Shown here one piece after another: positions 6,479 to 63,770 of a stretch of 64,000 nucleotides of DNA. A program made the position numbers and the translations under genes. This stretch comes from Planctomycetales bacterium (lineage in GTDB: Bacteria > 4484-113 > JAFGCY01). The stretch spans positions 1,751,149 through 1,815,148 of the forward strand of contig CP060262.1 of assembly GCA_022646745.1 (NCBI GenBank), read 5' to 3'. Numbering within the stretch: the stretch's first letter is position 1; the number at the start of each line of letters is the position of its first letter. A model generated the notes under the pieces. It was not told where the DNA came from and searched no databases. It saw only the letters and a program-made list of their open reading frames with translations.

Positions 6479-8029
6479 ATGACAGGAAAGGAGCTGGCCT
6501 CCTATTACCGGGCTGCGGTAGAGTACATCGACCCGCGGCTGCGGGATGACTGTCCCGTCGAGGACATCTGTGCCGCCGCCAAGGCGCGCCAGCATGCGCT
6601 GCGCGCACATGACAGCGACACCGCCCGCCTGGAGCTCGAGAAGATTGAGGAGGCCCTGCAGTTCATCCAGCGTGTGCACCCGGATGTGGTCGATATCTGC
6701 CGGGAGCAGGTGACTGCGGAATATGCCGCAGAAGTTGAACCAGCGTTGGATCTTGCGCATATTGCCCAGTCTGAACCGGAAGTGCAGGATGCCAGCCAGC
6801 TGGTCGCGGATTTCCATGCGGAGGAAGCAATACAGCCTGCCGTGGAAACCGACGAGGCCTCCCTAGTTGACAACTCCGTTGCCGCGCCGGCTGAACGCGA
6901 TGACTACGCCGGTGTGCTGCTGAGCGGCACGACTGCGGATCCCGCGGAAGACGAAATGGTCGAGCTCGTGCTCGGTTCCGGCAGCCATTTCGAGGCGGCA
7001 GTGGAATCCGCAACTGAACTGGAGACAGCAACGGCGGATGAACCGGAACCGGAAGCCATCAGTATTGATTTCGCCGCTGAGCCGCAGGTCATCCAGCCGG
7101 AATCCGTGCTGGAAATTGACGACGCGATTGCTTCCAGTATTGACAACGAAGCTGAAGCAGAATCAGGCGATGCCGGCAGCGAGCTGGCCGCCGCCATGGC
7201 TGCCTCGCGTGAGCATGTGGAAGTGCCGAGCCGCCACCAGTTCATCGCTGAACTGCGAGAGCGCCGCCTCAGCAGCCAGCATGAACTGGCCGCAGAGGAA
7301 GCCGAGCAGGTCATTTCCGAACTGCGTGAGGAGCAGCACAGCGAGGAGCGCGTCAGCGAGCTGATCAGCCGCGTGCCTGATGTCAGTGAACGCATGGAAC
7401 AGGAGCTGCAGCAGGAAGAGCAGACCAGCCGCCCGCTGGACTTCCGCAGCCTGATGTCACGCGCCGGTGCCAACCCGTCGCTGAAGGTCCGCCCAGCCAG
7501 CCGTCCGCGCCTGAAGACCGAGGAAATCCTCGGGCGGGAGAGGCCGGCGCGCCGGATCCCGGAGGAACACGCTGCTCCGATCCTGCTTGGGATGCTCATG
7601 ATCCTGTGGCAATTCAGTGCTGCGCTGCTGGCCGGATTTGCGCTCAGCCGTGCACTGGTCTGGCATTTCGGCACAGCCTTCTCATCCATGACCCCAATCA
7701 AGGCATTATTCACCTGCCTGGTAGGCCTCGGTACGGCCGCCCTGATCGGCGCCGGATTCCGCTATTACCGCCTGCGCAGCCACCGGCTGTCCCTGCCGGT
7801 GCACGTCAGTGCGCTGTCCATCGTGATGCTGCTGCTGTCCTGGCAGTTCAGCGCGAATGCCAACGCCTATGCCAGCGGCCCGCCGTTATGGCTGTGGTGC
7901 ATGCTGTTCGCCGCCTGGCTGGTTGCCACAATCGCCGCCGGACTGCACGACCTGCGTGTGCCGCCTGTCTCTCGTGATCCGGAATCGGAAGTGGTAGCTG
8001 CCAAGCCTGCGGTACCGCTTGCCAACTGA
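6479..8029 (+). CDS. Acidic (E/A/D-rich) protein with C-terminal multi-TM anchor, hypothetical
   Basis: 516-aa ORF. The N-terminal ~350 aa are highly acidic and low-complexity. The C-terminal ~150 aa contain 3-4 hydrophobic helices (ILLGMLMILWQFSAALLAGFAL..., ALFTCLVGLGTAALIGAGF..., LSIVMLLLSWQF..., LWLWCMLFAAWLVATIAAGL). Confidence 0.6.
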   Translation: MTGKELASYYRAAVEYIDPRLRDDCPVEDICAAAKARQHALRAHDSDTARLELEKIEEALQFIQRVHPDVVDICREQVTAEYAAEVEPALDLAHIAQSEPEVQDASQLVADFHAEEAIQPAVETDEASLVDNSVAAPAERDDYAGVLLSGTTADPAEDEMVELVLGSGSHFEAAVESATELETATADEPEPEAISIDFAAEPQVIQPESVLEIDDAIASSIDNEAEAESGDAGSELAAAMAASREHVEVPSRHQFIAELRERRLSSQHELAAEEAEQVISELREEQHSEERVSELISRVPDVSERMEQELQQEEQTSRPLDFRSLMSRAGANPSLKVRPASRPRLKTEEILGRERPARRIPEEHAAPILLGMLMILWQFSAALLAGFALSRALVWHFGTAFSSMTPIKALFTCLVGLGTAALIGAGFRYYRLRSHRLSLPVHVSALSIVMLLLSWQFSANANAYASGPPLWLWCMLFAAWLVATIAAGLHDLRVPPVSRDPESEVVAAKPAVPLAN

Positions 8030-12679: not shown

Positions 12680-13516
12680 TCAGGCGAGCAGGGACAGTAG
12701 GTAGCGGCCCAGTTCCGCTTCGCCGTTGTCAGGCAGCACATGGCTTGCCAACGCCAGCGCCTGCGGATGGGAATGGCCCATTGCCACCGCCCTGCCGGCT
12801 GCTGCCAGCATCGGCAGGTCGTTGGCATCGTCGCCGACGGCCATGGTCTCACTTATGTCCAGCCCGAGCAGCTGCGCGAATCTCCCCAGCGCCCAGCCCT
12901 TGTTGCCATCGGGATGGAACACCTCCAGTGCGTGGCAGGGCATGCGCGGCCAGAGCACGCATTCGGCGAACACATCGTCGCCAAGCCCGGTTTCAAGGGT
13001 GCGCTTGCCTTCGAGCACGAGCTCCTCAGTGCCGGGCATGCTCAGCTGCAGCACCTGGCGCTCGGGCAGCTCTTCGAGTGATGCAATCGTGCCGCCGCGT
13101 GCGCCATACTCCGAGAAGTAACGTGTCTGCAGCACGGACTCGGCGCGCTTAAGCCAGGCGAAGTCCATCGGGTCCTCGTCATCCCATTCGAAGTAGAGGT
13201 TCAGCGAATGCGGCTCCAGCAGGGAGACGGCCTGCTCGACGAGGCGGTGCTCCAGCGGCTTGCTGGCCAGCCGGGTCCAGTCAGGCAGCTGCCAGAGCTG
13301 GGTGCCGGAGTTGCTGCTGGCGAGGATCGGCAGGCCGATCTGGTCCATGTAGGGTTCGAGGGTGGTGCGCCGCCGGCCGGTGATCACCGCCAGCGCCACG
13401 CCGGCTTCATGCAGCTCACGCAGGGCCCGCAGGTTGATCTCCGGGATGCGGTGGTCATCGACGGGCAGCAGCGTGCGGTCGAGGTCCAGGGCGATCAGCT
13501 TTGGCAGGGTGGGCAC
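12680..13516 (-). CDS. HAD-superfamily hydrolase, Cof-type (HAD-IIB)
   Basis: N-terminal LIALDLDRTLL (DxDxT motif I). Downstream GDDANDLPML motif IV. Confidence 0.8.
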   Translation of the reverse strand: MPTLPKLIALDLDRTLLPVDDHRIPEINLRALRELHEAGVALAVITGRRRTTLEPYMDQIGLPILASSNSGTQLWQLPDWTRLASKPLEHRLVEQAVSLLEPHSLNLYFEWDDEDPMDFAWLKRAESVLQTRYFSEYGARGGTIASLEELPERQVLQLSMPGTEELVLEGKRTLETGLGDDVFAECVLWPRMPCHALEVFHPDGNKGWALGRFAQLLGLDISETMAVGDDANDLPMLAAAGRAVAMGHSHPQALALASHVLPDNGEAELGRYLLSLLA

Positions 13517-13556
13517 GGAGGGATTATCGCAGGTGGGCGTGGAGGAAGTGTGGAGA

Positions 13557-13724
13557 AGAAGGGACCGGGGACCAGGGACCAGGGATCGGGTGGGAATGGT
13601 GATCAGGAATTAGCGGAAATACAAACAATGTACCGGTTATCCGTTTGATGCATAAACCCGATCCCTGCACCCTGAAACCGGATTCTGGTCCCCGGTCCCA
13701 GGTCCCCGGTCCCTGCTATATACT
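13557..13724. repeat. Long imperfect palindrome in divergent promoter region (GGGACCGGGGACCAGGGACCAGGGATCGGG … CCCGATCCCTG … CTGGTCCCCGGTCCCAGGTCCCCGGTCCC)
   Basis: Outer ~30-bp arms (13557-13589 and 13693-13724) plus a perfect 11-bp inner inverted repeat (13581-13591 / 13667-13677). Lies between the divergent HAD hydrolase and ABC exporter genes. TATATACT -10-like box at ~13726. Confidence 0.45.
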
Positions 13725-13797: not shown

Positions 13798-15840
13798 ATG
13801 CCAACTGAGCAGAACAAGCCGGCCCCTCCAGCCGCGGAAAGCAGCCAGCAGAAGGCGCAGCGCACCAGCTTGCGCAACTCGCGGCGCTTCATCGCGCGCT
13901 GGATCATCATCTCGAGCGTGGTCTCGCTGCTGCTGGGTGGCCTGCTGCTCGTCTTCAATACAAAGATCAACACGCTGCTGGCGGACTTCGACTCGCTCGG
14001 CAGCATCGAGGGCGGCCCGCTGGCGGTATCCATCTTCATGCTGGCCGGCGGCTGCGGCCTGCTGCTCCTGCTGCCGGTGCTTGGCGGCGAGCGGCGCGAG
14101 TGGGAACGGATCATGCCGCTGATCTTCGAGCAGCGCGGCCACTTCTCGAAGATGCTGATGGGCAGCGCGATCTTCGTCGTGACCGAGATGTCATTGCCGG
14201 CCTTCATCGGCTACATGGTGAATGACATTGTCAACACACAGCGCAGCATGCCCGGGCTCTACATCGCGATCGGCGTGCTGCTGGCGGTGCTGGTGCTGCG
14301 CGCCGTCGGCGGCTACTTCCGCCAGAACCACGCACAGGCGCTGGCCTACAGCATCTCCGCCGACCTGCGCCAGAAGCTGTACTCGCACCTGCAGAAGATG
14401 AACTTCAGCTACTTTGACAAGGCCCGCCAGGGCGACCTGATGTCAACGCTGACGAACGACGTGGAGAAGCTGCAGTTCTTCCTGCTGAACTCCAGCGAGG
14501 ACTTCTTCGTGGCCCCGCTGAAGGTCTACATCGGCATCGCCTGCGTGATCTTCCTCAACTGGAAGCTGGCGGTGGTGATCATCCTGACGATGCCGCTGAT
14601 CTCGATCATGCTGAAGTTCGCCGGCGGGCGGCTCAGGCGCATCAACCGCGAGGCGCAGGACTGGGTGGCTAAACTGACGGCGGAGCTGGCGGAGGGCATC
14701 AACACCATCCGCCTGGCCCAGAGCTTCGGCCTCGAGCGCACCGAGCTGTCACGCTTCCAGCACACCAATGAGGAGACCCGGCGGCACCTGCTCGGGCATG
14801 CCCAGGTCAGCGCGGTGCTGCTGCCGATCGTCGAGGCGATCGGCTTCATCGGCCCGCTGGTGATCATCATCTCGCTGTGCTGGTGGGCGATCAGCGGCGG
14901 GGTGGACCTGAAGGCGGCGGAGATCCTCACACTGGCCGGCTACGGCGCGCTGATTGCCAACCCGCTTGGCAAGGTCAGCCGCCTGATGGTGACCCTGTCC
15001 CAGGGCGAGGCCGCCAGTTCCCGCATCAACGGCATCCTCGACACCGAGGCCGCGATCCACGACCTGCCGGATGCCAAGGAGATCGCCGAGGTGGACGGCC
15101 GGATCGAGTTTGACAACGTGACCCTGCAGTACGGCGCGAAGGATGCCTACGCCCTGCGCGAGGTCAACCTCGTGATCCAGCCCGGCACACTGACGGCATT
15201 CGTCGGCGAAAGCGGCAGCGGCAAGTCCAGCCTCGTGCACCTCGTGCCGCGCTTCTACGAGGTGAGCAGCGGGCGGGTGCTGCTGGACGGGCATGACGTG
15301 CGCGGCCTGAAGCTTGCCAACCTGCGCAGCCACATCGGGCTCGTCAGCCAGGACACGATCCTCGTGCATGGCACGATCGCCGAGAACATCGCCTACGGCA
15401 CGCCGGATGCGGACCATGTGGAGATCCTCGGCGCGGCCCAGAGTGCCAACGCCCACACCTTCATCATGGAGTTCCCGGATGGCTATGACACGGTGGTCGG
15501 CGAGAAGGGCGTGACCCTGTCCGGCGGCCAACGCCAGCGCATCGCGATTGCGCGCGCATTGCTGCGCGACCCGCGCATCCTGCTCTTGGATGAGGCCACG
15601 AGCGCACTCGACAGCGTGAGTGAGGCGATGGTGCAGGATGCGCTCAACAAGCTGATGTTCGGCCGCACCACGCTCCTCGTCGCACACCGCCTGTCAACGG
15701 TGCGCCATGCTGACAATATCGTGGTGCTGAAGGCCGGCCGCATCTTCGAACAGGGCAACCATGAGGCACTGATCGCGAAGGGTGGGGAGTACGCACGGCT
15801 CGTGAAGCTGCAGGGCATGGCGCGGGAAGAGTCCGGATAG
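13798..15840 (+). CDS. ABC transporter, fused permease/ATP-binding (MsbA/ABCB-type exporter)
   Basis: Six-TM domain followed by Walker A GESGSGKSS, signature LSGGQRQRIAIARAL and Walker B ILLLDEATSALD. Extra ~90-aa N-terminal extension. Confidence 0.85.
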   Translation: MPTEQNKPAPPAAESSQQKAQRTSLRNSRRFIARWIIISSVVSLLLGGLLLVFNTKINTLLADFDSLGSIEGGPLAVSIFMLAGGCGLLLLLPVLGGERREWERIMPLIFEQRGHFSKMLMGSAIFVVTEMSLPAFIGYMVNDIVNTQRSMPGLYIAIGVLLAVLVLRAVGGYFRQNHAQALAYSISADLRQKLYSHLQKMNFSYFDKARQGDLMSTLTNDVEKLQFFLLNSSEDFFVAPLKVYIGIACVIFLNWKLAVVIILTMPLISIMLKFAGGRLRRINREAQDWVAKLTAELAEGINTIRLAQSFGLERTELSRFQHTNEETRRHLLGHAQVSAVLLPIVEAIGFIGPLVIIISLCWWAISGGVDLKAAEILTLAGYGALIANPLGKVSRLMVTLSQGEAASSRINGILDTEAAIHDLPDAKEIAEVDGRIEFDNVTLQYGAKDAYALREVNLVIQPGTLTAFVGESGSGKSSLVHLVPRFYEVSSGRVLLDGHDVRGLKLANLRSHIGLVSQDTILVHGTIAENIAYGTPDADHVEILGAAQSANAHTFIMEFPDGYDTVVGEKGVTLSGGQRQRIAIARALLRDPRILLLDEATSALDSVSEAMVQDALNKLMFGRTTLLVAHRLSTVRHADNIVVLKAGRIFEQGNHEALIAKGGEYARLVKLQGMAREESG

Positions 15841-16250
15841 TGGAAGAAGTCTGAATAGTGGAAGAAGTGATTAGTGTTTAGTTCTTAGTAGCGGCGGCGC
15901 CCCCGCCGCTGGGGCAGGTTGGAGTGGGGAGTTTGGAGTTGGGAGGCGCGCAACTTGTTTGCGCGCAATTCGATGGTGAAGCAGTCCGAAGAGGGTAAGA
16001 AGTTGCTAGTGTTTAGTTCTGAGTAGCAGCGGCGCCCCCGCCGCTGAGGGATGTCAGACGAAAGTCTGGCAACAGTTAGCAAAGGGCAGTAGGCAGCGGG
16101 CAGTAGGCAGGATGAGAATGAGAAACAGAATGAGAAGCAGCAGATGCCTATGCTCCCCTACTTCTTTCACTTCCCCCACTATGCAGACTATCCAGACTAC
16201 CGCTGAAGCAGGTAGCTCCGCACATCCCTCATCCCGCATCCCCAGCCAGG
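15841..16250. repeat. Repeat-rich, low-GC intergenic region with two copies of a ~45-bp direct repeat, each carrying a GC hairpin
   Basis: GTGATTAGTGTTTAGTTCTTAGTAGCGGCGGCGCCCCCGCCGCTGG (15868-15913) recurs at 16003-16048. Hairpin AGCGGCGG-CGCC-CCGCCGCT and palindrome GCGCGCAA-CTTG-TTTGCGCGC. Direct repeats GGGCAGTAGGCAG x2 and GAATGAGAA x3. Convergent gene ends on both sides. Confidence 0.5.
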
Positions 16251-16251
16251 C

Positions 16252-16992
16252 TTACAGCCTGGCCTCCCGTTCCTCCCTGTCACGCAGCCGCACATGTTCG
16301 CGCAGCACACCCGTTCCGAGCGTGATCTCCAGCAGGTTGGCAAAGCCCCATTGCCAGAGTGGCGTGGAGAGGATGAGCATGCCCAGCGGTGTGAAGCTGG
16401 CGATGCTCTGCGCATCGTGCAGCAGCAGGTTGAGCGCGGAAAGGATCATCAGCGGGGCAAGGGCGATCGTGCTGATTGCAGTCGCTGCACCTGGCCTGCG
16501 ACGCAGCTCCAGCAGGTAGGGTAGCTGCATCCCCGCGGCCCGGGCCCGGCCGAAGCCCGTTGCCAGGTTGAGGTGGATATGGTCGAGCCGGGCAAGGTAT
16601 CCGCTAGCGTAGTCCTCCACCGGTGGGTAGTTGTCGTCGCTGAGCAGCCGCAGCAGCAGGTCAGAACCGGCAATGCGTCGGCGCAGCTCCACGAGTAGCA
16701 TCCCCAGCCGCAGCAGCTGGAACAGGCCGAAGCAGAATGAGAGGATGAAGCCCGCCATCAGCAGGCGGAAGGGTGGTGTCTGGCTCACGCTGCCAGCCAG
16801 CGGGTAGTCAGCCGCAAGTGAGTACACCACGCGCCAGCCGCAGATAAGGTAGAGCACTACGGGGATGATCACGAGGAACAGCCAGGCGGCAAGCATTGTC
16901 ATTTCCGGTCCCAGCACGCGGCCGGCCGGCAGCACGCGCTCTCCCTGCGGCGGGGTGAACAGGATGCGCTCGAAACTGTGCCGCTCAGGCAT
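16252..16992 (-). CDS. 4-TM membrane protein, member 1 of a tandem paralog triplet (operon-distal)
   Basis: Start MPERHSFERILF… (ATG 16990-16992) overlaps the upstream gene stop by 8 nt. Topology is TM-TM, ~70-aa loop, TM-TM. C-terminus LREHVRLRD. Confidence 0.6.
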   Translation of the reverse strand: MPERHSFERILFTPPQGERVLPAGRVLGPEMTMLAAWLFLVIIPVVLYLICGWRVVYSLAADYPLAGSVSQTPPFRLLMAGFILSFCFGLFQLLRLGMLLVELRRRIAGSDLLLRLLSDDNYPPVEDYASGYLARLDHIHLNLATGFGRARAAGMQLPYLLELRRRPGAATAISTIALAPLMILSALNLLLHDAQSIASFTPLGMLILSTPLWQWGFANLLEITLGTGVLREHVRLRDREEREARL

Positions 16993-17800
16993 CGGTTGTC
17001 TGTCCTGTGTCAGACGGCTGGTCGATGTGCAGTAGGCCGTTGTCAAGCTCGCGCAGGTGCTCACGCAGCAGGGATTGCTGTACAAGCTGGTACATCACCG
17101 GCAGGGCCAGCCAGGTGATGATTACGGCCAGCACAACCTGCGTGACAGCAATGATGAATGTCTCGTTACCGCTGCCGTTGGCCGGCGCATTGGACCGCAG
17201 ATGGCTCAGTGGAACCAGGACTGGAACTGAGAGGCACAACCAGATCAGCAGCAGGTTCACGATCAGGGGAGGCCAGGGGGATTTCCTCAGGCCAATGCAG
17301 TAATCAAGCTGGCGGAAAGCCTCGATGAAGTGGTTCATCATTGTCTCTTTGCGCAATGCCAGCAGTTCGAAGCTGCGCAGCCAGCCCGCCAGCGGGCCAT
17401 CGTGGTACTCCACCCGCCAGCCATGCATCAGCCGGACCGCGATGTCGGACTGCTTCAGCCGGCTGCGCACCCTGTCCAGATGCGCCCGGGCGCGGCTGGT
17501 GAGGAACAGTGTTGCCAGCACCGGGGCCAGTACCGCAAGCACAAGAGCTGCGATGGTGAGGCCGTCCAGCTGCGGGTTGCCCTGGCTCGAGCCCAGCGTT
17601 GCCATCATCATGTCCACTATCAGGGAGATTGCAACAAACAGCAGGCTGATCATTGGCGCAAGCGTCAGGCCCATTGCCATCACCATGTTGATGAAGGCAT
17701 CCGCAGAATCCATCCGGCTCAGGCCGAAGCTCCTGCGGTCCATCTCGCCGAACACCTGCTGCTCCAGGCTGGCCCTGGGAGTGTCGGACACATCAGCCAT
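16985..17800 (-). CDS. 4-TM membrane protein, member 2 of the triplet
   Basis: 271 aa with the same topology. Loop motif KQSDIAVRLMHGW. C-terminus LLREHLRELD. Start overlaps the upstream stop by 8 nt. Confidence 0.65.
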   Translation of the reverse strand: MADVSDTPRASLEQQVFGEMDRRSFGLSRMDSADAFINMVMAMGLTLAPMISLLFVAISLIVDMMMATLGSSQGNPQLDGLTIAALVLAVLAPVLATLFLTSRARAHLDRVRSRLKQSDIAVRLMHGWRVEYHDGPLAGWLRSFELLALRKETMMNHFIEAFRQLDYCIGLRKSPWPPLIVNLLLIWLCLSVPVLVPLSHLRSNAPANGSGNETFIIAVTQVVLAVIITWLALPVMYQLVQQSLLREHLRELDNGLLHIDQPSDTGQTTDA

Positions 17801-18542
17801 GCAACACCTCCACTGCCGCTGGCCGTTGGCTCACGCTGGATGCCTGCTTGTCAAGGTCGCGCAGGTGCTCGCGCAGCAGCAATGCTTCACAGCGCTGCGC
17901 AAGAAAGGCATGCAGGCAGACATGCGTTGCCAGCAGCAGGCATGCTTCAATGGCTGCATAATTCAGGAAACTGTAGAAGTTGACCGGGGCATTGAGCACA
18001 ATGGCAACCAGCAGGGCTGCAAGCATGGGCAGCATCAGGATTGAAGGCAGCCAGCGCTGTTTTTCTCGGCCCTGCATGAAGGACAGCTGCTGGAATACCA
18101 GCCGCAGCTGCAGCGCCAGATCCCTGCCGGAATCAGTTTGCATTCCCTGCTCAATCTCCCTCAGCAATGCCAGGAACGGTGCATCCGGGCTGTCGGGTTG
18201 CCAGCCGGTCATGACCCTCGCCACCAGGTCAGAACGTCTCAGCATGCGCCTGGCGACGGAGATCCTGCGTGCCAGCAGCAGCAGGTTCAGCAGGCTGAGC
18301 AGTACGGCACTGAGCGCGAGCGACCAGCCAATGGTCTCAATGTATTCGTAATCAAAGGCATGGCGCACACCGGGATTGATAGCCTTGATTGGAGCGAGCG
18401 TGTACTGTAACCATAGGAGCGGCGGCAGCAGCGAAGGCACGAGGATGGCCAGCGCAGGCCACAGGGGATAGAGGTAAGTGCTGCGTGGTTCGCGACTGGC
18501 GTGCTCGCCAAACACCCGGTTCTCAAAGCTGGCCGTCTGCAT
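17793..18542 (-). CDS. 4-TM membrane protein, member 3 of the triplet (operon-proximal)
   Basis: Start chosen at MQTASFENRVFGE (RBS AGAGGGGA). A TATAAT box sits ~35 nt upstream on the minus strand. Loop motif RRSDLVARVMTGW. C-terminus LLREHLRDLD. The track ORF extends to 18689 through the repeat element. Confidence 0.55.
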   Translation of the reverse strand: MQTASFENRVFGEHASREPRSTYLYPLWPALAILVPSLLPPLLWLQYTLAPIKAINPGVRHAFDYEYIETIGWSLALSAVLLSLLNLLLLARRISVARRMLRRSDLVARVMTGWQPDSPDAPFLALLREIEQGMQTDSGRDLALQLRLVFQQLSFMQGREKQRWLPSILMLPMLAALLVAIVLNAPVNFYSFLNYAAIEACLLLATHVCLHAFLAQRCEALLLREHLRDLDKQASSVSQRPAAVEVLHG

Positions 18543-18616
18543 CGTCCCCTCTGTATCAAGCATGTCCATTCCCATGGGGATTATACGCCTGCGGGCATGG
18601 CTGCGCCAGCCTTGAC

Positions 18617-18767
18617 AGCAATGAGCAATGAAGAGTGAGCAATGAGTAGGAAGCAATGAGTAGGGATCAATGAAGAATGATCCTATCAATGTTTAGCAGG
18701 ACTCGATGCAGGTTCAGTCTCATTGCTCACTCTTCAGTGCTCATTGCTCCCCACTCATTGCTCCCCC
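18617..18767. repeat. Palindromic GAGCAATGAG-repeat element, copy a
   Basis: Arm CAATGAGCAATGAAGAGTGAGCAATGAG (18619-18647) is an almost perfect inverted repeat of CTCATTGCTCACTCTTCAGTGCTCATTGC (18719-18747). Additional (A)GCAATGAG direct repeats flank it. Located in the divergent promoter region between triplet gene 3 and the lipoprotein gene at 18828. Confidence 0.55.
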
Positions 18768-18827
18768 GCTTGACCCGCAAGCCGCATCCGCGGATAATTG
18801 ACTGGTAGTCCATCCAAGGGGAATAGC

Positions 18828-19679
18828 ATGGGAACGCAGAAGGGTATCGGTTTCGCAGGCGTGCTCGCCATCAGCCTGGCCTCACTGGTCTTCGGGGCCT
18901 GCGGCGGCGGAGGGGGCAACATCACCGGCTACGTGGTGCCGGACAACCCCTATTACTACGGTGGCAACAACGGCCCCTACTACTCAGGTAACAGCGACTA
19001 CTACTACCAGAACGGCTACTACTACGACCAGTATGGCTACTATGACCAGTTCGGCTACTACGACGGTTATGGCAACCAGCTGTACAACTCGAATGACCCG
19101 GCCTACGTGAACATCGTCAACCGCAACGGACGTGGCAACGACCCCTTCATGCAGAACTATGCCAACATCAACGACCGCACGGTCTCGCAGTTCGTCAACT
19201 CAACCTACTCCGAGATGCTGGCGGACTTCGGCGGCAGCCTGCAGGACCTGCTGGTGCGCGTGGATGGCAACTCAGTTGACATCCCGCCCGGGGAGTACAC
19301 GCTGGCAAGCCGCAATGCGGTGCTCAGTGAGGACGGCGGCCTGGACAGCGCGATCACGCTCAACTCCAGCTATGACGGAGTCAGCCTCGTGACCTACACG
19401 CTCGAGGAGTTCTCCGGCTACGAGCAGCTGGCCAGCTTCGCCATCAACGGCACGGGCAGCTTCGGCAGTGGCGACCGCAACGGGGTGTACTTCGGCATCC
19501 GCCAGTACGGCGACCGTGACACCCGCTGGTACGGCCCCTACCGCAACGGGATGGAGTGGAAGGTGCGCCCGCTGCGCTGGGATGAGCGCTACCAGTCGCG
19601 CCACTGCTTCGTGACCGTGGCTGTGTTCGGTGGAGACAGCGTGACCGTGAACCACATGCGCGCTGAGGTCGTTTACTGA
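18828..19679 (+). CDS. Lipoprotein with Tyr/Gly-rich low-complexity segment and a C-terminal W-Y-G-P-Y domain
   Basis: MGTQKGIGFAGVLAISLASLVFGAC lipobox. YYYGGNNGPYYSGNSDYYYQNGYYYDQYGYYDQFGYYDGYGN low-complexity segment. C-terminal TRWYGPYRNGMEW…HCFVTVAVFGG resembles the domain in the 21312/22287 lipoproteins and the giant protein. Confidence 0.65.
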   Translation: MGTQKGIGFAGVLAISLASLVFGACGGGGGNITGYVVPDNPYYYGGNNGPYYSGNSDYYYQNGYYYDQYGYYDQFGYYDGYGNQLYNSNDPAYVNIVNRNGRGNDPFMQNYANINDRTVSQFVNSTYSEMLADFGGSLQDLLVRVDGNSVDIPPGEYTLASRNAVLSEDGGLDSAITLNSSYDGVSLVTYTLEEFSGYEQLASFAINGTGSFGSGDRNGVYFGIRQYGDRDTRWYGPYRNGMEWKVRPLRWDERYQSRHCFVTVAVFGGDSVTVNHMRAEVVY

Positions 19680-19723
19680 ATCGAGGACTGACGAGGCACT
19701 GAATCTCGTGCTGAGGGAATTCC

Positions 19724-20221
19724 ATGGAATCTCCACATTCCGGCATGCCTGCATTGCGCAGCCCGGGCTATAATCGCCCAGTGGCGAAAAGCTCAGTCTG
19801 GTTATGCATTGTATGCTTTGCACTGCTGCTGGCAGGTGCCTGCGGCAGTTCATCCACATATTCCTACCGCCTGCCGGCCGGCGTTGACAACAACCTGCGC
19901 ATCGTGCGCGCCGGTGACCCGAACTCGGTGCTGGCCGACACGCAGGACAAGGGGCGGATCACGATGCGGGTCGGCGAGACGCTGACGGTCTCGGCGATCT
20001 ACCGCTTCCGTTCTGCGATCTTCACCGGCACTGACGAAAAGGATGAATTCGTCACCGCGGACAGCAGCTGGCACTGGCTGGAGGCCGTGAATGACACACT
20101 CAGCTTTGACAACGGGGTGGTCACGGCACTCAAGCCAGGGGTGGACACGCTCAAGGCGGAGTACCGCGACAACGACATCTTCGAGGACTTCGACGCCAAG
20201 CTGGAAATCACCGTTGAATAG
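19724..20221 (+). CDS. Small lipoprotein, paralog 1 of a tandem pair (Ig-like/BIG-type fold suspected)
   Basis: LLLAGACGSS lipobox. Aligns along its length with the next gene (…LRIVRAGDPNSVLADTQDKGRITMRVGETLTVSAIYRFRSAI…). Confidence 0.65.
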   Translation: MESPHSGMPALRSPGYNRPVAKSSVWLCIVCFALLLAGACGSSSTYSYRLPAGVDNNLRIVRAGDPNSVLADTQDKGRITMRVGETLTVSAIYRFRSAIFTGTDEKDEFVTADSSWHWLEAVNDTLSFDNGVVTALKPGVDTLKAEYRDNDIFEDFDAKLEITVE

Positions 20222-20278
20222 GGGCACGGTACCGGGATGGGCAGACGGATCAGGAAACCACAGTTACAGGAGCTGGAA

Positions 20279-20713
20279 ATGACAATCAACAGGATGGCGG
20301 GGATCTTCCTCGCAATGGTGGCGATGCTGGCGCTGGCCGCCTGCGGCGGTGGCGGCAGCGAGTACATGCTGCCCACCGGCCAGGACTACAGCCTGCGCCT
20401 CGTGAAGGGCGGCGACCCGAATGACGTGCTGGCCTCCACCGAGCGCAAGGGCCACATCACGATGAATGTCGGCGAGACGCTGAATGTCACGACGATTTAC
20501 CGCTTCCGCTCGGCGATCGGCGACAAGGAGAAGGATGAGTTCGTCACGGCGACCTCGGCCTATGTCTGGCTGGAGGACGTGAATGACAAGCTGAGCTACA
20601 GCAACGGCAAGATCACCGCGGTCAAGGCCGGGCTGGACACCCTGCTCGTTAACTACGTTGACAACAATGCCAATGAGACCGTGTCCTGCCGGCTGGAGAT
20701 CACGGTCAACTGA
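20279..20713 (+). CDS. Small lipoprotein, paralog 2 of the tandem pair
   Basis: RBS AGGAG before MTINRMAGIFLAMVAMLALAAC. ~45% identical to the previous gene. Confidence 0.65.
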   Translation: MTINRMAGIFLAMVAMLALAACGGGGSEYMLPTGQDYSLRLVKGGDPNDVLASTERKGHITMNVGETLNVTTIYRFRSAIGDKEKDEFVTATSAYVWLEDVNDKLSYSNGKITAVKAGLDTLLVNYVDNNANETVSCRLEITVN

Positions 20714-20737
20714 TCTTCATCGGATTGATCCACAGTG

Positions 20738-20768
20738 GGCCCGCTTCGGCGGGCCCTTTCTGCTTTCT
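20738..20768 (+). terminator. Rho-independent terminator (GGGCCCGC-TTCG-GCGGGCCC + TTTCTGCTTTCT)
   Basis: Perfect 8-bp GC stem, UUCG tetraloop and T-rich tail directly after the 20713 stop. Confidence 0.55.
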
Positions 20769-20774
20769 GCTCCC

Positions 20775-20890
20775 TGGCTCCGCCTAACAATCTCCTTCTT
20801 CATTTACTTCTCCCACTTCTTCAACTATTCAGACTATCTACACTATTGCCAGACTCTCGTCTGGCCTCCTGCCCACTGCTTACTGATTAT
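20775..20890. repeat. Mosaic short-repeat segment related to 15841-16210
   Basis: CACTTCTTCAACTATTCAGACTATC is the reverse complement of AGTCTGAATAGTGGAAGAAGTG at 15849. TACTTCT..CACTTC..CAGACTATC.A.ACTA matches 16157-16200 in direct orientation. Hairpin GCCAGAC-TCTC-GTCTGGC (compare CAGAC-GAAA-GTCTG at 16058). CCTGCCCACTGCTTACTG is the reverse complement of the CAGTAGGCAGCGGGCAGG family. Confidence 0.45.
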
Positions 20891-20988
20891 TTAACTTTCA
20901 CTTAATCAAACTCCTGTTAGGGTTCCGCCCCCCTGCGGTAACACATCTGGTTTGTGAGAACCCCACCAAATTCCAAAGGAGGCAGACC

Positions 20989-21177
20989 ATGCGTTCAATG
21001 ATCTATGCAGTGGCGGCAGTGCTGCTGGTACTTGCAATGGCAGTGGTTCACATGCTGTCCTCTGCGGATGCCGCGGGCGGCAGCCGGGAGGGGCAGCGCA
21101 TCGGCATGGCCGTTGCAGGTGACCACACTGACGATGCTTATTGCCAGGTTTCTGACTGGCTGAGTGAACTGGACTGA
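20989..21177 (+). CDS. Small protein (62 aa) with N-terminal hydrophobic segment
   Basis: Consensus RBS AAAGGAGGCAGACC before the ATG. MRSMIYAVAAVLLVLAMAVVHMLSSADAAGG is signal- or TM-like. Confidence 0.45.
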   Translation: MRSMIYAVAAVLLVLAMAVVHMLSSADAAGGSREGQRIGMAVAGDHTDDAYCQVSDWLSELD

Positions 21178-21311
21178 TGCAGGTGTTGACTGCCTGATCG
21201 GTGGGGCCGGGAAACCGGCCCCTTTCCGTTTCTGTTTAGCGATTGCGCTGGGCGGGTAACGATAACGGTTCATCTGTGGAACCCCAAAATCCAAATCAGA
21301 GGCCCACAGAA

Positions 21312-22115
21312 ATGTATGGAAAGTCTTATACCGGGTTTGCCGGTATCATCGCAGGAAGCATCATGATCCTCGCAGCCAGCTGCTCCGGTGGCAACGGCAT
21401 GGCAGAGGTCCCCTCCCCGCAGGACAGCGCGCCTGTCATCGGGGAAGCGCTCACCATGGAAGGTGCCCCCAGCCTGGAGAAGATCTCCAGCGGCTGGCAG
21501 CAGTGGGGCGATTTCGAGCTCGGCTGGCTGGACCTGCACCAGAGCGTGCATGACGGCAGCAATGAGCTGGACGAGACCCGCATCTTCGCCAAGAGCGAGG
21601 GAGTCTACAACTTCGAGGACGGCGGCAAGGACTACATCAACTTCCCGGCCGCCGGAGTCGGCATGCACTACGCCGTGTTCGGCCTGAAGGACATCCCGGT
21701 CGGCTCGATCATCCGCGGCATCCGTTTCACCACGGACTTCAACAGCTCCGAGAGTGATGACGCCGAGTACTACGTTGCCTACAGCAACTACGAGACCGGT
21801 GTGTTCCAGTGGTACGGCCCCTACGCCGAGGGCGACATCGAGCTCTACAACCTGTTCACGAACAACGTCAGTGTCGGCCAGAAGGCCTACTTCACCATCG
21901 CGGTCACGGGGAACAACTACTACTCCGACGTGACGGACGTGGAAGTCAGCATCGGCAAGCCGCTGAAGGTTGATCTGCCGCTGCTCTACGAGCGCCAGCC
22001 GATCCCCAACGACTGGGTTCTCAATGAGTATGGCAAGGTGGACTGGGACCTGCTGTGGAAGCGTCCCGAGTTCCAGGAGATCATGATCATCGTCCGTCCG
22101 ATCCTGATCTTCTGA
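21312..22115 (+). CDS. Lipoprotein, tandem duplicate 1 (W-Y-G-P-Y domain family)
   Basis: MYGKSYTGFAGIIAGSIMILAASCSGG lipobox. ~60% identical to the next gene, including the upstream leader (GGTTCATCTGTGGAACCCCAAAATCCAAATC…CCCACAGAAATG). Confidence 0.7.
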   Translation: MYGKSYTGFAGIIAGSIMILAASCSGGNGMAEVPSPQDSAPVIGEALTMEGAPSLEKISSGWQQWGDFELGWLDLHQSVHDGSNELDETRIFAKSEGVYNFEDGGKDYINFPAAGVGMHYAVFGLKDIPVGSIIRGIRFTTDFNSSESDDAEYYVAYSNYETGVFQWYGPYAEGDIELYNLFTNNVSVGQKAYFTIAVTGNNYYSDVTDVEVSIGKPLKVDLPLLYERQPIPNDWVLNEYGKVDWDLLWKRPEFQEIMIIVRPILIF

Positions 22116-22129
22116 GCAGCAACAAGCTG

Positions 22130-22166
22130 TCCTGAACAGCGGGCCTGGCATCTGCCGGGCCCGTTT
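22130..22166 (+). terminator. Rho-independent terminator (CGGGCCTGGCA-TCT-GCCGGGCCCG + TTTTTGTTTTTCT)
   Basis: GC stem plus a long T-tract after the 22115 stop. Confidence 0.55.
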
Positions 22167-22286
22167 TTGTTTTTCTGCACGATCCTGTGCGCTTTCACTG
22201 CATTTGCTGTTTAGGTTTGGGAGGGGCCGGGTAACAAGAATGGTTCATCTGTGGAACCCCCAAATCCAAATCTAGGACCCACAGAA

Positions 22287-23129
22287 ATGTACGGAAAGTT
22301 CACTAACAGCATTGCAGGAATCATCATCAGCGGCGCCGCCATCATGGCAGCCAGCTGCTCCGGCGGAGCCGGGATGGATACAGCCAACCCGGGTAACACC
22401 GAAGTCGACCAGGCCGCCATCATTGAGCAGGCCATCACCACCGACGAGATGCCTTCCCTTGAGAAGCTCTCCAGCGGCTGGGAGCAGTGGACCGGCAGCG
22501 ACATCCTGATCGACTGGTACACCGTCTGGCTCAACAAGCACCAGAGCGTCGGCTACGGCGTGAACGACCTTGATGAGACAAAGCTGATCACCAAGAGTGA
22601 GGGCGTCTACAACTTCGAGGACGACGGCAAGGATTACCTCAACTTCCCGGCCACCGGCGGCGGCCTGAACTACGCCGTGTTCGGCGTCAAGGACGTTCCG
22701 CAGGGCGCGATCATGAAGGGCATCCGCTTCACCACGGACTTCAACTCCAGTGAGAGCCCGAACGCTGAGTACTACGTCTGCTACAGCAACTACGAAAGCG
22801 GTGTCTACCAGTGGTACGGCCCCTTCGCAGAGGGCGAGTACGAGGTCTACAACTTCTACACAAACAACATCAACGAGTACCAGCGTGGCTACTTCACCAT
22901 CGCCATCACCGGCAACAACTACTACAGCGATGTGACTGACGTGGAAGTGATCATCGGCGACCCGATCGACTTCAAGATCCCGGACCTCGTCGAGCACCAG
23001 CCGATCCCGAACTGGTGGCTGATGGACGACCTGGGCTTCGTGGACTGGGGCAAGCTGTTCGAGCTGCCCGCCGTCCAGCAGCTGAAGATCGCCCCGCAGT
23101 TCCAGTTCAGGACTGAGCTGGCCCGCTAG
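22287..23129 (+). CDS. Lipoprotein, tandem duplicate 2 (W-Y-G-P-Y domain family)
   Basis: MYGKFTNSIAGIIISGAAIMAASCSGG lipobox. Conserved blocks SEGVYNFED(D/G)GKDY(I/L)NFPA, IRFTTDFNSSES, QWYGP(Y/F)AEG, TGNNYYSDVTDVEV. Confidence 0.7.
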   Translation: MYGKFTNSIAGIIISGAAIMAASCSGGAGMDTANPGNTEVDQAAIIEQAITTDEMPSLEKLSSGWEQWTGSDILIDWYTVWLNKHQSVGYGVNDLDETKLITKSEGVYNFEDDGKDYLNFPATGGGLNYAVFGVKDVPQGAIMKGIRFTTDFNSSESPNAEYYVCYSNYESGVYQWYGPFAEGEYEVYNFYTNNINEYQRGYFTIAITGNNYYSDVTDVEVIIGDPIDFKIPDLVEHQPIPNWWLMDDLGFVDWGKLFELPAVQQLKIAPQFQFRTELAR

Positions 23130-23146
23130 GCAGACAGTCAGCAACA

Positions 23147-23180
23147 AGGAAACAGTGAGCCCCGCCACGGCGGGGCTCCT
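23147..23180 (+). terminator. Rho-independent terminator (GAGCCCCGCC-ACG-GCGGGGCTC + CTGCATTTTCT)
   Basis: Perfect 10-bp stem after the 23129 stop. Confidence 0.55.
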
Positions 23181-23245
23181 GCATTTTCTGTGGAGAAAGT
23201 ATCGCCATACGGGCAGCCCCGGAATCCCATAGTAGAATTCTGCCC

Positions 23246-23764
23246 GTGAGTGATATGCAGTTGCCCGATGGACTTGAAGTGATCGTGCTGCTTGGCAGCA
23301 TCAGCGACCGCGCGGTGGCGGAGGAGATGCTGCCCGTGTTCAGCGATTTCGGCGTCACCGCCCATGTGGCCGTGTGCAGCGCGCACCGCGACCATGAACG
23401 CCTCGCCCGGCTGATCCCCGAGGCTGAGTCGAAGGGCTGCGTGAGCGTGATTGCAGTGGCGGGCAAGAGCGCACACCTGCCGGGTGTCTGCGCCGCCCTG
23501 ACCACCATGCCGGTGATCGGCGTGCCCGCAGTCAACAGCGGGATCTGGCAGGATTCGCTGTACTCCATCGTGAACATGCCCCCGGGCATCCCGGTGGCCT
23601 GCGTCGGCATGGATGCGGGGCGCAACGCCGCCCTGCTGGCCGTGCAGCACGTTGCCATCGGCCGCAGTGAACTGCGTGGTAAGCTCAAGGACTTCAGGGA
23701 CAAGATGCGTGAAAGCAACCGGCGTGACAGTGCCAAACTGCAGCAGGAGCTGTCAGGAAAGTAG
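23246..23764 (+). CDS. purE: N5-carboxyaminoimidazole ribonucleotide mutase (AIR carboxylase catalytic subunit)
   Basis: VLLGSISD P-loop-like motif, …AHR…, AVAGKSAHLPGV and the overall 170-aa PurE layout. Confidence 0.9.
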   Translation: MSDMQLPDGLEVIVLLGSISDRAVAEEMLPVFSDFGVTAHVAVCSAHRDHERLARLIPEAESKGCVSVIAVAGKSAHLPGVCAALTTMPVIGVPAVNSGIWQDSLYSIVNMPPGIPVACVGMDAGRNAALLAVQHVAIGRSELRGKLKDFRDKMRESNRRDSAKLQQELSGK

Positions 23765-23858
23765 GCGCCACGCACTTCGCGTTCTGTTCCGCAATAAAAA
23801 ATAAAACTGTGCCGTGCGCGGCGGTGGGTGCCGTGCCCGGCTGCATCCGGAGCAATGG

Positions 23859-25703
23859 ATGATCGATCGCTACACGCGGCCGCCAATGGGCCGCCTGTTC
23901 ACGGCGAAGCATCGCTTTGACACCTGGCTGAAGGTTGAGCTGGCTGTCTGCGAGGCCTGGGCGGAGCGCGGGGAAATCCCGCAGGATGCCTGGAAGCGCA
24001 TCAGGAAGAATGCCAACTACAAGCTCAAGCGCATCAACGAGATTGAGGCGGCCGTGCACCATGACGTGATCGCCTTCAACACGGCGGTGGCGGACTACAT
24101 CGGCGAGGACAGCGCCTACTTCCACAAGGGGATGACCTCCAATGACGTGGTGGACACCGCGCAGTGCCTGATCCTCAAGGAGGCCGGGCAGCTGATCGAG
24201 GAGGGCCTGATCCGCCTGCGCAAGGCGCTCGGCGCCCGTGCGCTGGAGTACCGCCACACCCCGGTGATGGGCCGCACACACGGCGTGCATGCCGAGCCGA
24301 CCACCTTCGGGCTGAAGCTCCTGGTCTGGTATGACGAGCTCAACCGCCACGAGGAGCGGCTCGCGCTGGCGATTGACGGCCTGGCCGTCGGCAAGCTGTC
24401 CGGCGCCGTTGGCAACTTCGCGCACATCCCGCCGGACCTCGAGGAGCAGATCCTGCGAAAGCTCGGCCTGCAGAGTGCGCCGGTCTCCAACCAGGTGGTG
24501 CAGCGCGACCGGCATGCGCACTTCGTGATGGTGCTGGCCGGGCTGGCCTCCACGATGGAGAAGATCGCCGTCAACCTGCGCAGCTACCAGCGCACGGAGA
24601 TCGGCGAGGTGCAGGAACCCTTCGCCAAGGGCCAGAAGGGCTCCTCCGCGATGCCGCACAAGAAGAACCCGATCCTGCTCGAGCGCATCACCGGGCTGTC
24701 CCGTGTGATCCGCGGCTATGCCGTGACCGCGCTTGAGAACGTCGCGCTGTGGGACGAGCGTGACATTTCACACTCCGGCGCCGAGCGCGTGATCCTGCCG
24801 GACGCCTGCATCCTCGTTGACTACATGATGGACAAGCTGTCAACGGTGATCGGCGGGCTGGTCGTGCGCCCGGAGCAGATGAACCGCAACATCTACCTGA
24901 CGAAGGGCCTGATCTTCAGCCAGCGTGTGCTGCTGGCCCTGACCGAGGCCGGCGTCAGCCGCGAGGATGCCTACAGCATGGTGCAGCGCAATGCGATGCG
25001 CTGCTGGGAGGACCGCACCCCGCTGCTGGATGCTCTGCTCAATGACCGGGACGTGCGCAGCCACCTGGACACGGCGCAGATCTCCAGCCTGTTCACCATC
25101 GACCCGTTCCTGGAGCATGTCGACCGGCTGTTCGAGCGCGTCGGCCTCAGTGACGGCAAGAAGCACAGCTCAGACGACCCGAAGCCGGTGCAGGCCCCGC
25201 GCCGCGGCCGGGGACGCGGCCGGCGCAAGGATGACCGCATCATGCGCAGCGAACAGGGCAACATTGACAGCATTGCAGTGGACACCGGCGCGATCCAGAA
25301 CATCAGTGAGCGCGCCTCCGACTACTACGAGTCCGCCAGCGTGGTACTGAGCCGTACGAAGTCGGATGCACCGAAGGGTGATGACACGCTTGGCGAGGCG
25401 GAGCACCAGAAGAAGAAGGTGGCCAGTGAAGGTACCGGCAAGCCTGCCAGCGCCTCCCGCAGCCGCTCGCGCAGCAAGCCGCGCACTGACAAGGATAAGG
25501 ATAAAGTTGCCACTGAAGGCAAGGATAATGAGAAGCCTTCCGGGGTAGGAAGCAGCAAGCCCGCCCCTCCCGCCGACGCTTTGGCGTCCGCCGATGAGGA
25601 GAAGGCGGCGAAGCCACGCCGGCGCAGGCGTCGCAGCCCGTCGCGCAAGCCCGCAGAGGGTGGCACTGGTAATGGATCTGATACTAAGGAAAAGGGAGAA
25701 TAG
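23859..25703 (+). CDS. purB: Adenylosuccinate lyase with ~190-aa basic/Ser-rich low-complexity C-terminal extension
   Basis: N-terminus MIDRYTRPPMGRLF (compare B. subtilis-type PurB). Fumarate-lyase signature GSSAMPHKKNP. The catalytic core ends ~aa 440. The ORF continues uninterrupted through a K/R/S/D-rich tail (RRGRGRGRRKDD…RSRSRSKPRTDKDKDK…KPRRRRRRSPSRK) to 25703, 2 nt before purC. Confidence 0.85.
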   Translation: MIDRYTRPPMGRLFTAKHRFDTWLKVELAVCEAWAERGEIPQDAWKRIRKNANYKLKRINEIEAAVHHDVIAFNTAVADYIGEDSAYFHKGMTSNDVVDTAQCLILKEAGQLIEEGLIRLRKALGARALEYRHTPVMGRTHGVHAEPTTFGLKLLVWYDELNRHEERLALAIDGLAVGKLSGAVGNFAHIPPDLEEQILRKLGLQSAPVSNQVVQRDRHAHFVMVLAGLASTMEKIAVNLRSYQRTEIGEVQEPFAKGQKGSSAMPHKKNPILLERITGLSRVIRGYAVTALENVALWDERDISHSGAERVILPDACILVDYMMDKLSTVIGGLVVRPEQMNRNIYLTKGLIFSQRVLLALTEAGVSREDAYSMVQRNAMRCWEDRTPLLDALLNDRDVRSHLDTAQISSLFTIDPFLEHVDRLFERVGLSDGKKHSSDDPKPVQAPRRGRGRGRRKDDRIMRSEQGNIDSIAVDTGAIQNISERASDYYESASVVLSRTKSDAPKGDDTLGEAEHQKKKVASEGTGKPASASRSRSRSKPRTDKDKDKVATEGKDNEKPSGVGSSKPAPPADALASADEEKAAKPRRRRRRSPSRKPAEGGTGNGSDTKEKGE

Positions 25704-59494: not shown

Positions 59495-59578
59495 GAACTG
59501 TCCGCCATATCGGAATAAGCAAGACTGTATCAAAATCTCCTATGCACATGCAATATGCAGCCAAATCAGTCGCCGGGT

Positions 59579-63655: not shown

Positions 63656-63770
63656 GCAATGATTTTTGAGTGATGAGAAGTGAGTAATGAGCAATGAGTT
63701 CAACTCACTGTGACGTCACCTCGTTGCCTGTCAGGCTCATTGCTCACTCTTCATCACTCATTGCTCCTCA
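63636..63770. repeat. Palindromic GAGCAATGAG-repeat element, copy b
   Basis: GCAATGAGCAATGAAGAATGAGCAATGA … GTGATGAGAAGTGAGTAATGAGCAATGAG, then a spacer containing the perfect palindrome GTGACGTCAC, then the inverse arm GCTCATTGCTCACTCTTCATCACTCATTGCTCC. Shares the exact 17-mer TCATTGCTCACTCTTCA with copy a. Confidence 0.55.

Follow-up and report, generated by a model that had tools for sequence, protein, structure and literature searches.

The window analysed here, a 64,000-nucleotide (nt) stretch of a genome deposited as Planctomycetales bacterium (GenBank assembly GCA_022646745.1, contig CP060262.1, positions 1,751,149 to 1,815,148), contains two palindromic elements built from tandem heptanucleotides. 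What kind of element are they, and is any gene associated with them? The first-pass annotation of this DNA had offered three answers: a mobile repeat resembling MITEs (miniature inverted-repeat transposable elements) or repetitive extragenic palindromic (REP) sequences, a binding array for a regulator, and a structured RNA. Here, we report that the two gene-less copies belong to a class of hairpins with heptamer arms, in which the gene-bearing form has the protein domain PF05635, that heptamer-armed brackets are a general feature of PF05635 genes, and that the elements are gained, lost and altered by whole units between related genomes.

The two elements, copy a (18617-18765) and copy b (63631-63768), consist of 7-nt units that end in TGA (xxxxTGA heptamers) and are arranged as follows, with E-values from a hidden Markov model (HMM) built from the arms.

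18617-18646, + strand: copy a left arm, AGCAATGAGCAATGAAGAGTGAGCAATGAG; four xxxxTGA heptamers with four TGA at 7-nt spacing; arm HMM E = 2.6e-11
18647-18718, + strand: copy a interior; degenerate heptamers TAGGAAG CAATGAG TAGGGAT CAATGAA GAATGA, then a unique loop
18719-18765, + strand: copy a right arm, CTCATTGCTCACTCTTCAGTGCTCATTGCT; core arm 18719-18748, then the extra units CCCCACT CATTGCT
63631-63662, + strand: copy b outer left arm; inverted repeat of 32 nt, 88% complementary; overlaps the last six codons of chaN
63667-63698, + strand: copy b inner left arm, GAGTGATGAGAAGTGAGTAATGAGCAATGAG; inverted repeat of 26 nt, 88% complementary
63699-63735, + strand: copy b centre; the family core, approximately CAGGCnGAGGTCACCTCGCTGCCTG in an alignment of 11 copies, here with GTGACGTCAC
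63736-63768, + strand: copy b right arm, CTCATTGCTCACTCTTCATCACTCATTGCTCCT; arm HMM E = 9.8e-11; complementary stretch 63736-63766

Both palindromes are real and well beyond chance expectation. The 18-mer CTCATTGCTCACTCTTCA has three exact matches in the window and six at no more than three mismatches, against 0.07 expected, and GCAATGAG occurs 15 times, against 3.9 expected. Runs of at least three TGA or TCA at 7-nt spacing are confined to copies a and b in the 64 kb (about 0.05 expected), and the four arms of these copies are the only matches of the HMM in the window. A register test finds 4 to 9 units in 7-nt register per element. The arms, 30-32 nt long and 88-97% complementary, give each copy the potential for a hairpin of about 30 bp, with predicted folds of -63 to -69 kcal/mol on both strands (z-scores -5.9 to -9.9). 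The description of two repeat-built palindromes with near-perfect inverted arms and a stem of about 30 bp was accordingly borne out, at 97% complementarity for copy a and 88% for copy b.

The two copies differ in their internal organization. In copy a, the complementary arms (18617-18646 and 18719-18748, 30 nt each) are extended by degenerate heptamers that reach 18687 on the left and 18765 on the right; its interior contains direct repeats at 14-nt spacing and forms internal sub-hairpins in the predicted fold. The two left arms of copy b carry nine TGA in exact 7-nt register, and the variant unit GTGATGA of the inner arm is mirrored by TCATCAC in the right arm. The perfect palindrome that the annotation had reported in the loop of copy b is present (GTGACGTCAC, 63710-63719) and is a variant of the family core; the centre ends in GTCAGG, which lengthens the inverted repeat. 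The artefactual antisense reading frame with the peptide HCSLFIAHC was likewise seen.

These two copies are members of a dispersed family, as a genome-wide search, the check that the annotation had proposed, makes clear: many copies were found beyond the pair in the window. We scanned one genome per species (185,579 species, 596 Gb) for exact matches to the 18-mer and obtained 33 loci, 21 of which (24 matches) come from three metagenome-assembled genomes (MAGs) labelled as candidate phylum UBP7, namely HKST-UBA01 (18 matches on 15 contigs), HKST-UBA03 (3) and AC1.30 (3). The chance expectation is about 1e-4 per genome, against 24 in the three UBP7 MAGs. The other 12 loci are close to the chance number for an 18-mer in 596 Gb (roughly 17 expected); among them are four to five genuine CAATGAG heptamer hairpins, on two Bacteroidales contigs (L002 and L005) and in Hymenobacter (L018 and L019). 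The 18-mer had no match in viral contigs, and carriage by phages was rejected on this ground.

With one mismatch allowed in the 10-nt core, the 21 UBP7 loci contain about 30 arm clusters, essentially all of them intergenic, in tandem, convergent and divergent gene contexts and beside unrelated genes; the context table derives from a crude filter on open reading frames (ORFs) and third-position GC content and serves qualitative use only. Several copies lie at contig ends, where assembly-breaking repeats are expected. In the alignment of 11 full copies, the left arm reads GCAATGAnnAATGAGnAAGGAGCAATGAGCC, the core of about 35 nt approximates the sequence given above, and the right arm reads (G)ACTCATTGCTCACTCTTCATTGCTCATTGCT; the arms comprise four to five heptamers in tandem, extended by CCTGAC on the left and by GTCAGG on the right. 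The irregular unit order CTCATTG CTCACTC TTCATTG CTCATTG, 28-30 nt long, is conserved in dozens of copies and across phyla, and identical arms enclose loops of very different content. Covariation within this alignment is uninformative, because the copies were ascertained through an exact 18-mer, which renders one arm invariant.

Other repeats accompany the family. Small GC-rich hairpins of different families, such as CCAGGCTGTnAGCCTGG and GGCGGCTTCCAGCCGCC, adjoin many CAATGAG elements in a mosaic resembling that of bacterial interspersed mosaic elements (BIMEs), for example in the flanks of L014, L025, L029 and L033 and at 16243-16262 of the window. At HKST-UBA01 contig ends (L003 100-170, L024 1-85), CAATGAG arms are adjoined or interrupted by another repeat, GTTACCTATGTnyTGArCC, whose period is about 22 nt, suggesting nested, assembly-breaking repeats.

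The same arms also occur around a gene. On an HKST-UBA01 contig (L010), the left arm occupies 7259-7290 and the right arm 7808-7840; between them lies a gene for a 123-amino acid (aa) protein that belongs to PF05635 (23S rRNA intervening-sequence protein; E = 3.7e-39) and also to TIGR02436, a four-helix-bundle protein family. The arms of this cassette (L010, and L034 for the same locus from other samples) are AGCAATGAGCAATGAAGAGTGAGCAATGAG(T/C)CTGAC and GTCAGGCTCATTGCTCAtTCTTCATTGCTCATTGCT. The layout consists of a left arm ending in CCTGAC, about 100 nt with the promoter-like sequence TTGACAT-N17-TACAAT, the ORF, about 60 nt, and GTCAGG followed by the right arm; the same arrangement is found in the relatives L038 and L040, with proteins 82% and 75% identical. 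A PF05635 gene (6594-6956, E = 3e-24) also lies between two CAATGAG hairpins on the Bacteroidales contig L005, which had been picked up solely through the 18-mer, independently of PF05635.

L040 had been taken for a second independent insertion, a reading that is withdrawn: tblastx identifies it as the L034 locus with the cassette interior inverted, the flanks being colinear with L034 in reverse while the gene keeps its orientation. Promoter and gene are thus flipped between fixed arms (L034 2860-3460 versus L040 400-950). Recombination between the inverted heptamer arms could explain the flip, which fits a cassette that is an invertible segment. A role of the PF05635 proteins in defence was rejected, as PADLOC returned no match for them.

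Heptamer-armed brackets are not peculiar to UBP7. We fetched 80 metagenomic PF05635 loci with an alignment of 31 PF05635 proteins and compared the two 300-nt flanks of each gene by aligning the upstream one with the reverse-complemented downstream one. The inverted-repeat score was at least 30 in 52 of 69 loci (median 39), compared with 6 of 69 in direct orientation and 3 of 69 for the best of ten shuffles. Under stricter flank requirements, 51 of 64 loci are bracketed, versus none of 95 equally long control intervals displaced by about 1 kb. The arms are nearly always tandem heptamers with a locus-specific unit, AGTGAAC, GGGACTG, GAGTTGT, GATATCA, CGGGTTT, AGTGACG and GGCATTA among others. 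Among self-match lags, 7 scores best for 52 of the 73 upstream flanks and 52 of the 74 downstream ones, and for 3 of the 110 control segments 700-900 nt away; period 8 is best in 10 flanks per side (of about 73) and period 14 in six to seven. The density of strict period-7 arrays in the 200 nt next to the PF05635 gene is 14 times that in the rest of the loci. The median arm length is 32 nt, or 4.6 units, and 42 of 61 arms have four or five units.

Because the unit differs from locus to locus and the arms nevertheless remain complementary, the arms co-vary at the family level, so that the covariation check suggested in the annotation is passed across the PF05635 cassettes. Arms are shared in four of five pairs of PF05635 proteins with at least 70% identity, and the 1.5-kb flanks contain five further segments with arrays of the same heptamer, versus none in shuffles. 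One locus, L087, has at 2032-2150 a gene-less hairpin (AGTGCAG x4 / CTGCAyT x4) about 1.2 kb from a PF05635 cassette with GAGTTGT arms.

In architecture, the class is an rRNA intervening sequence (IVS) placed outside rRNA, in ordinary intergenic DNA. The 23S IVS of Coxiella is 428 nt long, carries an S23p (PF05635) ORF and has a 28-bp terminal stem; it contains two or three GACAGAT heptamers, depending on the strain, RNase III cuts its stem at the start of the first repeat, and a mobile nature has been hypothesised for this IVS (PMC4990558). The window copies share with 23S IVSs a long stem of about 28-30 bp formed by terminal inverted repeats, and stem heptamers that vary in number, here through a 14-nt indel relative to an orthologue. 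Moreover, ORF-bearing (Coxiella, Leptospira) and ORF-less (Salmonella, Yersinia, Campylobacter) IVSs correspond to the gene-bearing and gene-less UBP7 copies: the PF05635 ORF in the loop is lacking from the window copies and present in the same-armed L010/L034, L038 and L040. The differences concern location and number. Neither copy is inserted in 23S helix 25 or 45; both lie outside rRNA, copy a in a divergent promoter region and copy b across the 3' end of chaN, and they belong to a family with dozens of copies per genome.

A parallel is found in Xanthomonas, where each genome has about 186 GGGAATC arrays, 70-75 inverted pairs among them, to which no function has been assigned (Rehm et al. 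2015, PMC4692102), and 83% of the arrays are conserved in position between species (PMC4692102). The PF05635 gene of Xanthomonas, from the family of the PDB 2gsc protein, lies between accB and accC, inside their operon (L135 1120-1575 from X. campestris and L139 1120-1575 from X. citri). The array to its left reads GGGAATC GGGAGTG GAGAATC GGGAATC; the one to its right is the reverse complement, CCCATTCCCCATTCTCGACTCCCTATTCCC, which directly precedes the accC start codon. Xanthomonas and UBP7 thus have in common a single PF05635 gene bracketed by the heptamer of the genome's orphan inverted arrays, a connection that PMC4692102 did not draw. The GGGAATC arrays resemble the UBP7 elements in being intergenic, in having a lineage-specific heptamer, in often forming inverted pairs and in varying in length among relatives; in contrast to the UBP7 heptamer, GGGAATC is G-rich and was studied as a G-quadruplex former, and the UBP7 elements add a conserved non-heptamer core between the arms.

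The cyanobacterial short tandemly repeated repetitive sequences (STRRs) and the TAACTGA repeats of Beggiatoaceae, Cyanobacteria and Bacteroidetes are also tandem intergenic 7-nt units with indels in 7-nt steps and a patchy spread across phyla (MacGregor 2015, PMC4679880). The window elements, with at least three tandem non-coding 7-nt units and whole-unit changes, fit this description, and a metagenomic PF05635 cassette (L056) has STRR1-like GGGGACT/CCCCAGT arms. TAACTGA repeats differ in being mostly single direct arrays just upstream of start codons instead of inverted pairs, and neither they nor STRRs have a reported link to PF05635. According to a survey of 7,006 genomes, tandem heptamers outnumber all other intergenic repeats, and there is "no clear clue" as to what they do (10.1101/309039), and a Nostoc preprint reports that heptamer arrays affect expression and postulates an unknown binding protein (10.1101/2022.06.06.494920). 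A 2024 preprint describes the PF05635 domain (23S_rRNA_IVP) as functionally uncharacterised. No paper in the literature that we searched links heptamer arrays to PF05635, and what appears to be new here is that inverted heptamer arrays are linked to PF05635 cassettes generally and in quantitative terms.

Another protein that invites comparison is Avd, which serves diversity-generating retroelements as their accessory protein and is a pentameric four-helix bundle from the same fold family as PF05635. Avd binds RNA and a reverse transcriptase. Protein P0005 matches NF033474, the Avd equivalog, weakly and far below the cut-off, and the precomputed domains include PF22296 (bAvd). In contrast to Avd, these cassettes do not have a reverse transcriptase or template/variable repeats beside them. 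The structures PDB 2gsc and 2rld have five chains each (pentameric crystal forms).

Gain, loss and whole-unit change of the elements follow from the comparison of the two window loci with their orthologues, since copy b is absent from three chaN orthologues and copy a carries a 14-nt indel. The start of copy b coincides with the expected stop of chaN, to which the element adds the codons AMSNEE and a TGA stop (63653-63655). The orthologues at 83%, 74% and 69% identity (L125 from HKST-UBA03, L126 and L128) lack copy b, have no CAATGAG hairpin downstream of chaN, and have the C termini ...AAEE*, ...ATEE* and ...VAEE*, every one closed by a TAG of its own. ChaN's Ala/Glu-rich tail, which the annotation had taken to be encoded by the element, is therefore native; AMSNEE and the TGA are all that the element adds.

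The surroundings of copy b are rich in other repeats. GC-rich repeats with 9- and 18-nt periods (GCGGCAGCCGCAGAAGCC...) at 63587-63634 encode the native Ala/Glu-rich tail, whose length and sequence differ among orthologues. Between the chaN stop and a conserved downstream block (TGTGAAC...GGTCTATGTAGGCGGGGAAGCAC), each species has wholly different small repeat modules; when L125 2497-2660 is compared with 63656-63815 of the window, HKST-UBA03 has two copies of a AGTAGCCGGCCGTTCACGCCCGG-like motif. An array, CCTCAAACCTCCTCACTCCAAACTCC, abuts copy b at 63767-63792 and is related to heptamer arrays at 15838-16250, an intergenic region described below.

Copy a is located between divergent protein-coding genes, 4 nt from the -35 box of the following feature, which is given as context only.

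18770-18798, + strand: sigma70-like promoter, TTGACC-17-GATAAT; 10 of 12 consensus positions; conserved in L001

This promoter serves a downstream lipoprotein gene with its ATG at 18828. The annotation had placed copy a in a promoter region, and the element does adjoin the promoter; given the 4-nt gap, it lies upstream of it and outside its transcript. The HKST-UBA01 contig L001 is 95-97.6% identical to 17272-25367 of the window, so that the window represents the same species as HKST-UBA01 or a sister species. Copy a is kept in L001 with nine substitutions and the 14-nt (two-unit) indel, the units CCCCACT CATTGCT of the right arm being absent from the orthologue, and the 65 nt of flank downstream are identical. 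CTTGAC is found on both sides of copy a, with CCCCCG between it and the arm.

Taken together, copies a and b are probably gene-less IVS-like hairpin elements that, once transcribed, would be substrates of RNase III; PF05635 is the candidate partner in trans. By analogy with Coxiella, host transcription through a copy would allow the arms to pair into an interrupted double-stranded RNA stem of about 30 bp, which RNase III would cleave as it does the IVS stem; given such cleavage, we propose that the element is an RNA processing or insulating site. Cleavage of the stem would make insertions tolerable. Copy b, at the 3' end of chaN and in its transcript, would undergo the predicted cleavage, and copy a, upstream of the promoter-like site, may be silent on that strand. 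More speculatively, a pentameric PF05635 protein might bind or propagate arrays of four to five cognate heptamers in trans; 7-nt slippage might then lengthen or shorten the arrays, and recombination might occur between the arms.

Several observations weigh against this proposal. A search for PF05635 homologues within the window found none. One gene-bearing locus, a single orthologous one, is known in UBP7, against a few dozen gene-less copies. The Bacteroidales and UBP7 PF05635 proteins have the same CAATGAG arms at 26-30% identity, which weakens a strict match between protein and heptamer. Gene-less copies and the cassette share the arms and about 6-10 adjacent nt; an origin of the former by internal deletion of the cassette was rejected, since cheap-gap global alignment aligned the arms only, with fragmentary matches in the loop. 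The cassette promoter lies inside the loop, and therefore the cassette mRNA would carry one arm only. There is no target-site duplication at copy b, L034, L038 or L040, and no known transposition enzyme was found with the elements. Finally, 49 arm mismatches would be G.U pairs on the sense strand and 61 on the antisense strand, and most mismatches are transversions. In the absence of a G.U bias, selection at the RNA level is undemonstrated, and copying between arms at the DNA level is equally possible.

The last point also bears on the structured RNA of the first-pass annotation, which is not supported: the test of G.U against A.C mismatches gives no strand-specific signal, and Rfam gives no match. 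The scan of the window with Rfam 15 at gathering thresholds yielded no match and no rRNA, a scan of the cassette locus L034 at E <= 1 was equally negative, so that a curated Rfam family was rejected, and a tRNA scan of the window found none.

Among other explanations, an unlikely one holds that the elements are functionless heptanucleotide simple-sequence repeats that arose by replication slippage and were inverted by chance, PF05635 genes preferring, or surviving in, pre-existing hairpin loops. In many bacteria, heptamers outnumber all other long simple-sequence repeats, and an origin by slippage has been proposed for them (10.1101/309039; PMC4679880, where Mrazek 2007 is cited to this effect), the indels seen here come in 7- and 14-nt steps, and identical arms hold very different loops. 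However, slippage leaves unexplained why an irregular order of units over 28-30 nt is conserved in dozens of copies and across phyla, why the CCTGAC/GTCAGG extension and the central core are conserved, and why 51 of 64 PF05635 genes but none of 95 control intervals are bracketed. The specific link between PF05635 and heptamer hairpins would still require a mechanism.

We consider it rather improbable that the elements are host regulatory or structural sites, the regulon of a PF05635 nucleic acid-binding protein that is autoregulated through its flanking sites, acting as operators or as RNA-stability elements, perhaps by REP-like protection of 3' ends. The occurrence of one gene and many sites per lineage in UBP7 and Xanthomonas would suit this explanation, as would arms of four to five units, which match the pentameric crystal forms, the 83% positional conservation of the Xanthomonas arrays (PMC4692102), and the effects on expression reported, and the binding protein postulated, in Nostoc (10.1101/2022.06.06.494920); copy b lies at a gene 3' end and copy a abuts a -35 box. 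Yet three orthologous chaN loci do without copy b, the neighbouring genes are unrelated and in all orientations, PF05635 cassettes located inside rRNA genes or midway through the accBC operon look like selfish insertions, and binding of PF05635 to the arrays is putative. The same unrelated neighbours make the annotation's binding array for a regulator of the adjacent triplet operons unlikely.

That the copies are classical MITEs or REP/BIME elements, mobilised by a conventional transposase or by a REP-associated tyrosine transposase (RAYT) encoded elsewhere, is very improbable. They are, to be sure, intergenic, multi-copy hairpins of about 100-150 bp with terminal inverted arms, show presence/absence polymorphism and have a gene-bearing version with the same ends; a MITE likewise has terminal inverted repeats, less than about 600 bp and many copies, and the small GC-rich hairpin repeats beside many copies recall the BIME mosaic. 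But the partner with the same ends encodes PF05635/TIGR02436, of unknown function, instead of a transposase or RAYT, and no other gene was found between such arms. Tandem heptamers, instead of unique transposase-binding inverted repeats, make up the arms, which do not have the conserved 5' GT(A/G)G (GTAG-like) head of REP sequences. Target-site duplication is not consistent, CTTGAC on both sides being seen at copy a only, the 18-mer is absent from viral contigs, and no RAYT gene was seen in the loci examined, whole genomes not having been searched. Of the annotation's options, a MITE-like or REP-like mobile repeat nevertheless comes nearest: a dispersed, polymorphic intergenic hairpin with a gene-bearing counterpart stands, and its assignment to classical MITEs or to REP sequences falls; a gene-less IVS-like heptamer hairpin describes the elements better.

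A bidirectional terminator with stops in six frames is hardly credible: on either strand the leading arm has TGA at 7-nt intervals, which covers three frames per strand, and copy b does end the chaN reading frame, but neither copy has a U-tract or a predicted terminator-like site, which led us to reject an intrinsic terminator, copy a has divergent genes on its two sides and a promoter downstream, and most PF05635-flanking heptamer arms (for example GGGACTG, AGTGGCT, GAGTTGT and CGGGTTT) carry no stop codon, so that a six-frame stop cassette as a general rule was rejected.

Elsewhere in the window, a second hairpin of the same architecture with another heptamer lies at 13556-13716 (fold z-score -3.8), with (A/G)GGGACC x4 at 13560-13585 and GGTCCC(C/A) x4 at 13687-13713, about 100 nt apart, between the divergent genes 12680-13516 (- strand) and 13798-15840 (+ strand). 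The intergenic region 15838-16250 is dense in small repeats, a stop-rich module (TAGTGGAAGAAGTCTGAATAG...) followed by the GC hairpin AGCGGCGGCGCCCCCGCCGCT occurring twice, together with the heptamer arrays GGAGTTG/GGGGAGG (15910-15946), GGCAGTA (16084-16110) and CATCCCG (16223-16242). A very long ORF of 1,883 aa occupies 53882-59533 on the - strand.

The window copies are new members, from a candidate phylum, of a kind of repeat known from rRNA IVSs and Xanthomonas arrays. Such elements add codons and stops to genes, as in chaN, create spurious ORFs and break assemblies. The shared arms suggest a source for the abundant, unexplained heptamer repeats of bacteria, the study of which in Xanthomonas, Nostoc and Beggiatoaceae ended without a mechanism, and the PF05635 family is very large. 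As a tentative extension, which may well prove too broad, PF05635 pentamers could be the missing trans-acting partners of prokaryotic heptamer repeats, the protein of each lineage recognising and propagating, or acting in some other way on, arrays of four to five units of its cognate heptamer; the bacterial excess of intergenic 7-nt repeats (STRRs, GGGAATC, CAATGAG) would then be for the most part a trace left by IVS-like cassettes and the gene-less copies descended from them. The finding yields a rule that can be checked: lineage-specific inverted heptamer arrays bracket a PF05635 gene, and the same heptamer occurs in the gene-less hairpins of that genome. Should this rule hold in complete genomes, it would tie together two orphan phenomena, extend the 23S rRNA IVS to a general class of dispersed elements, and open a long-standing descriptive puzzle to direct experiments.

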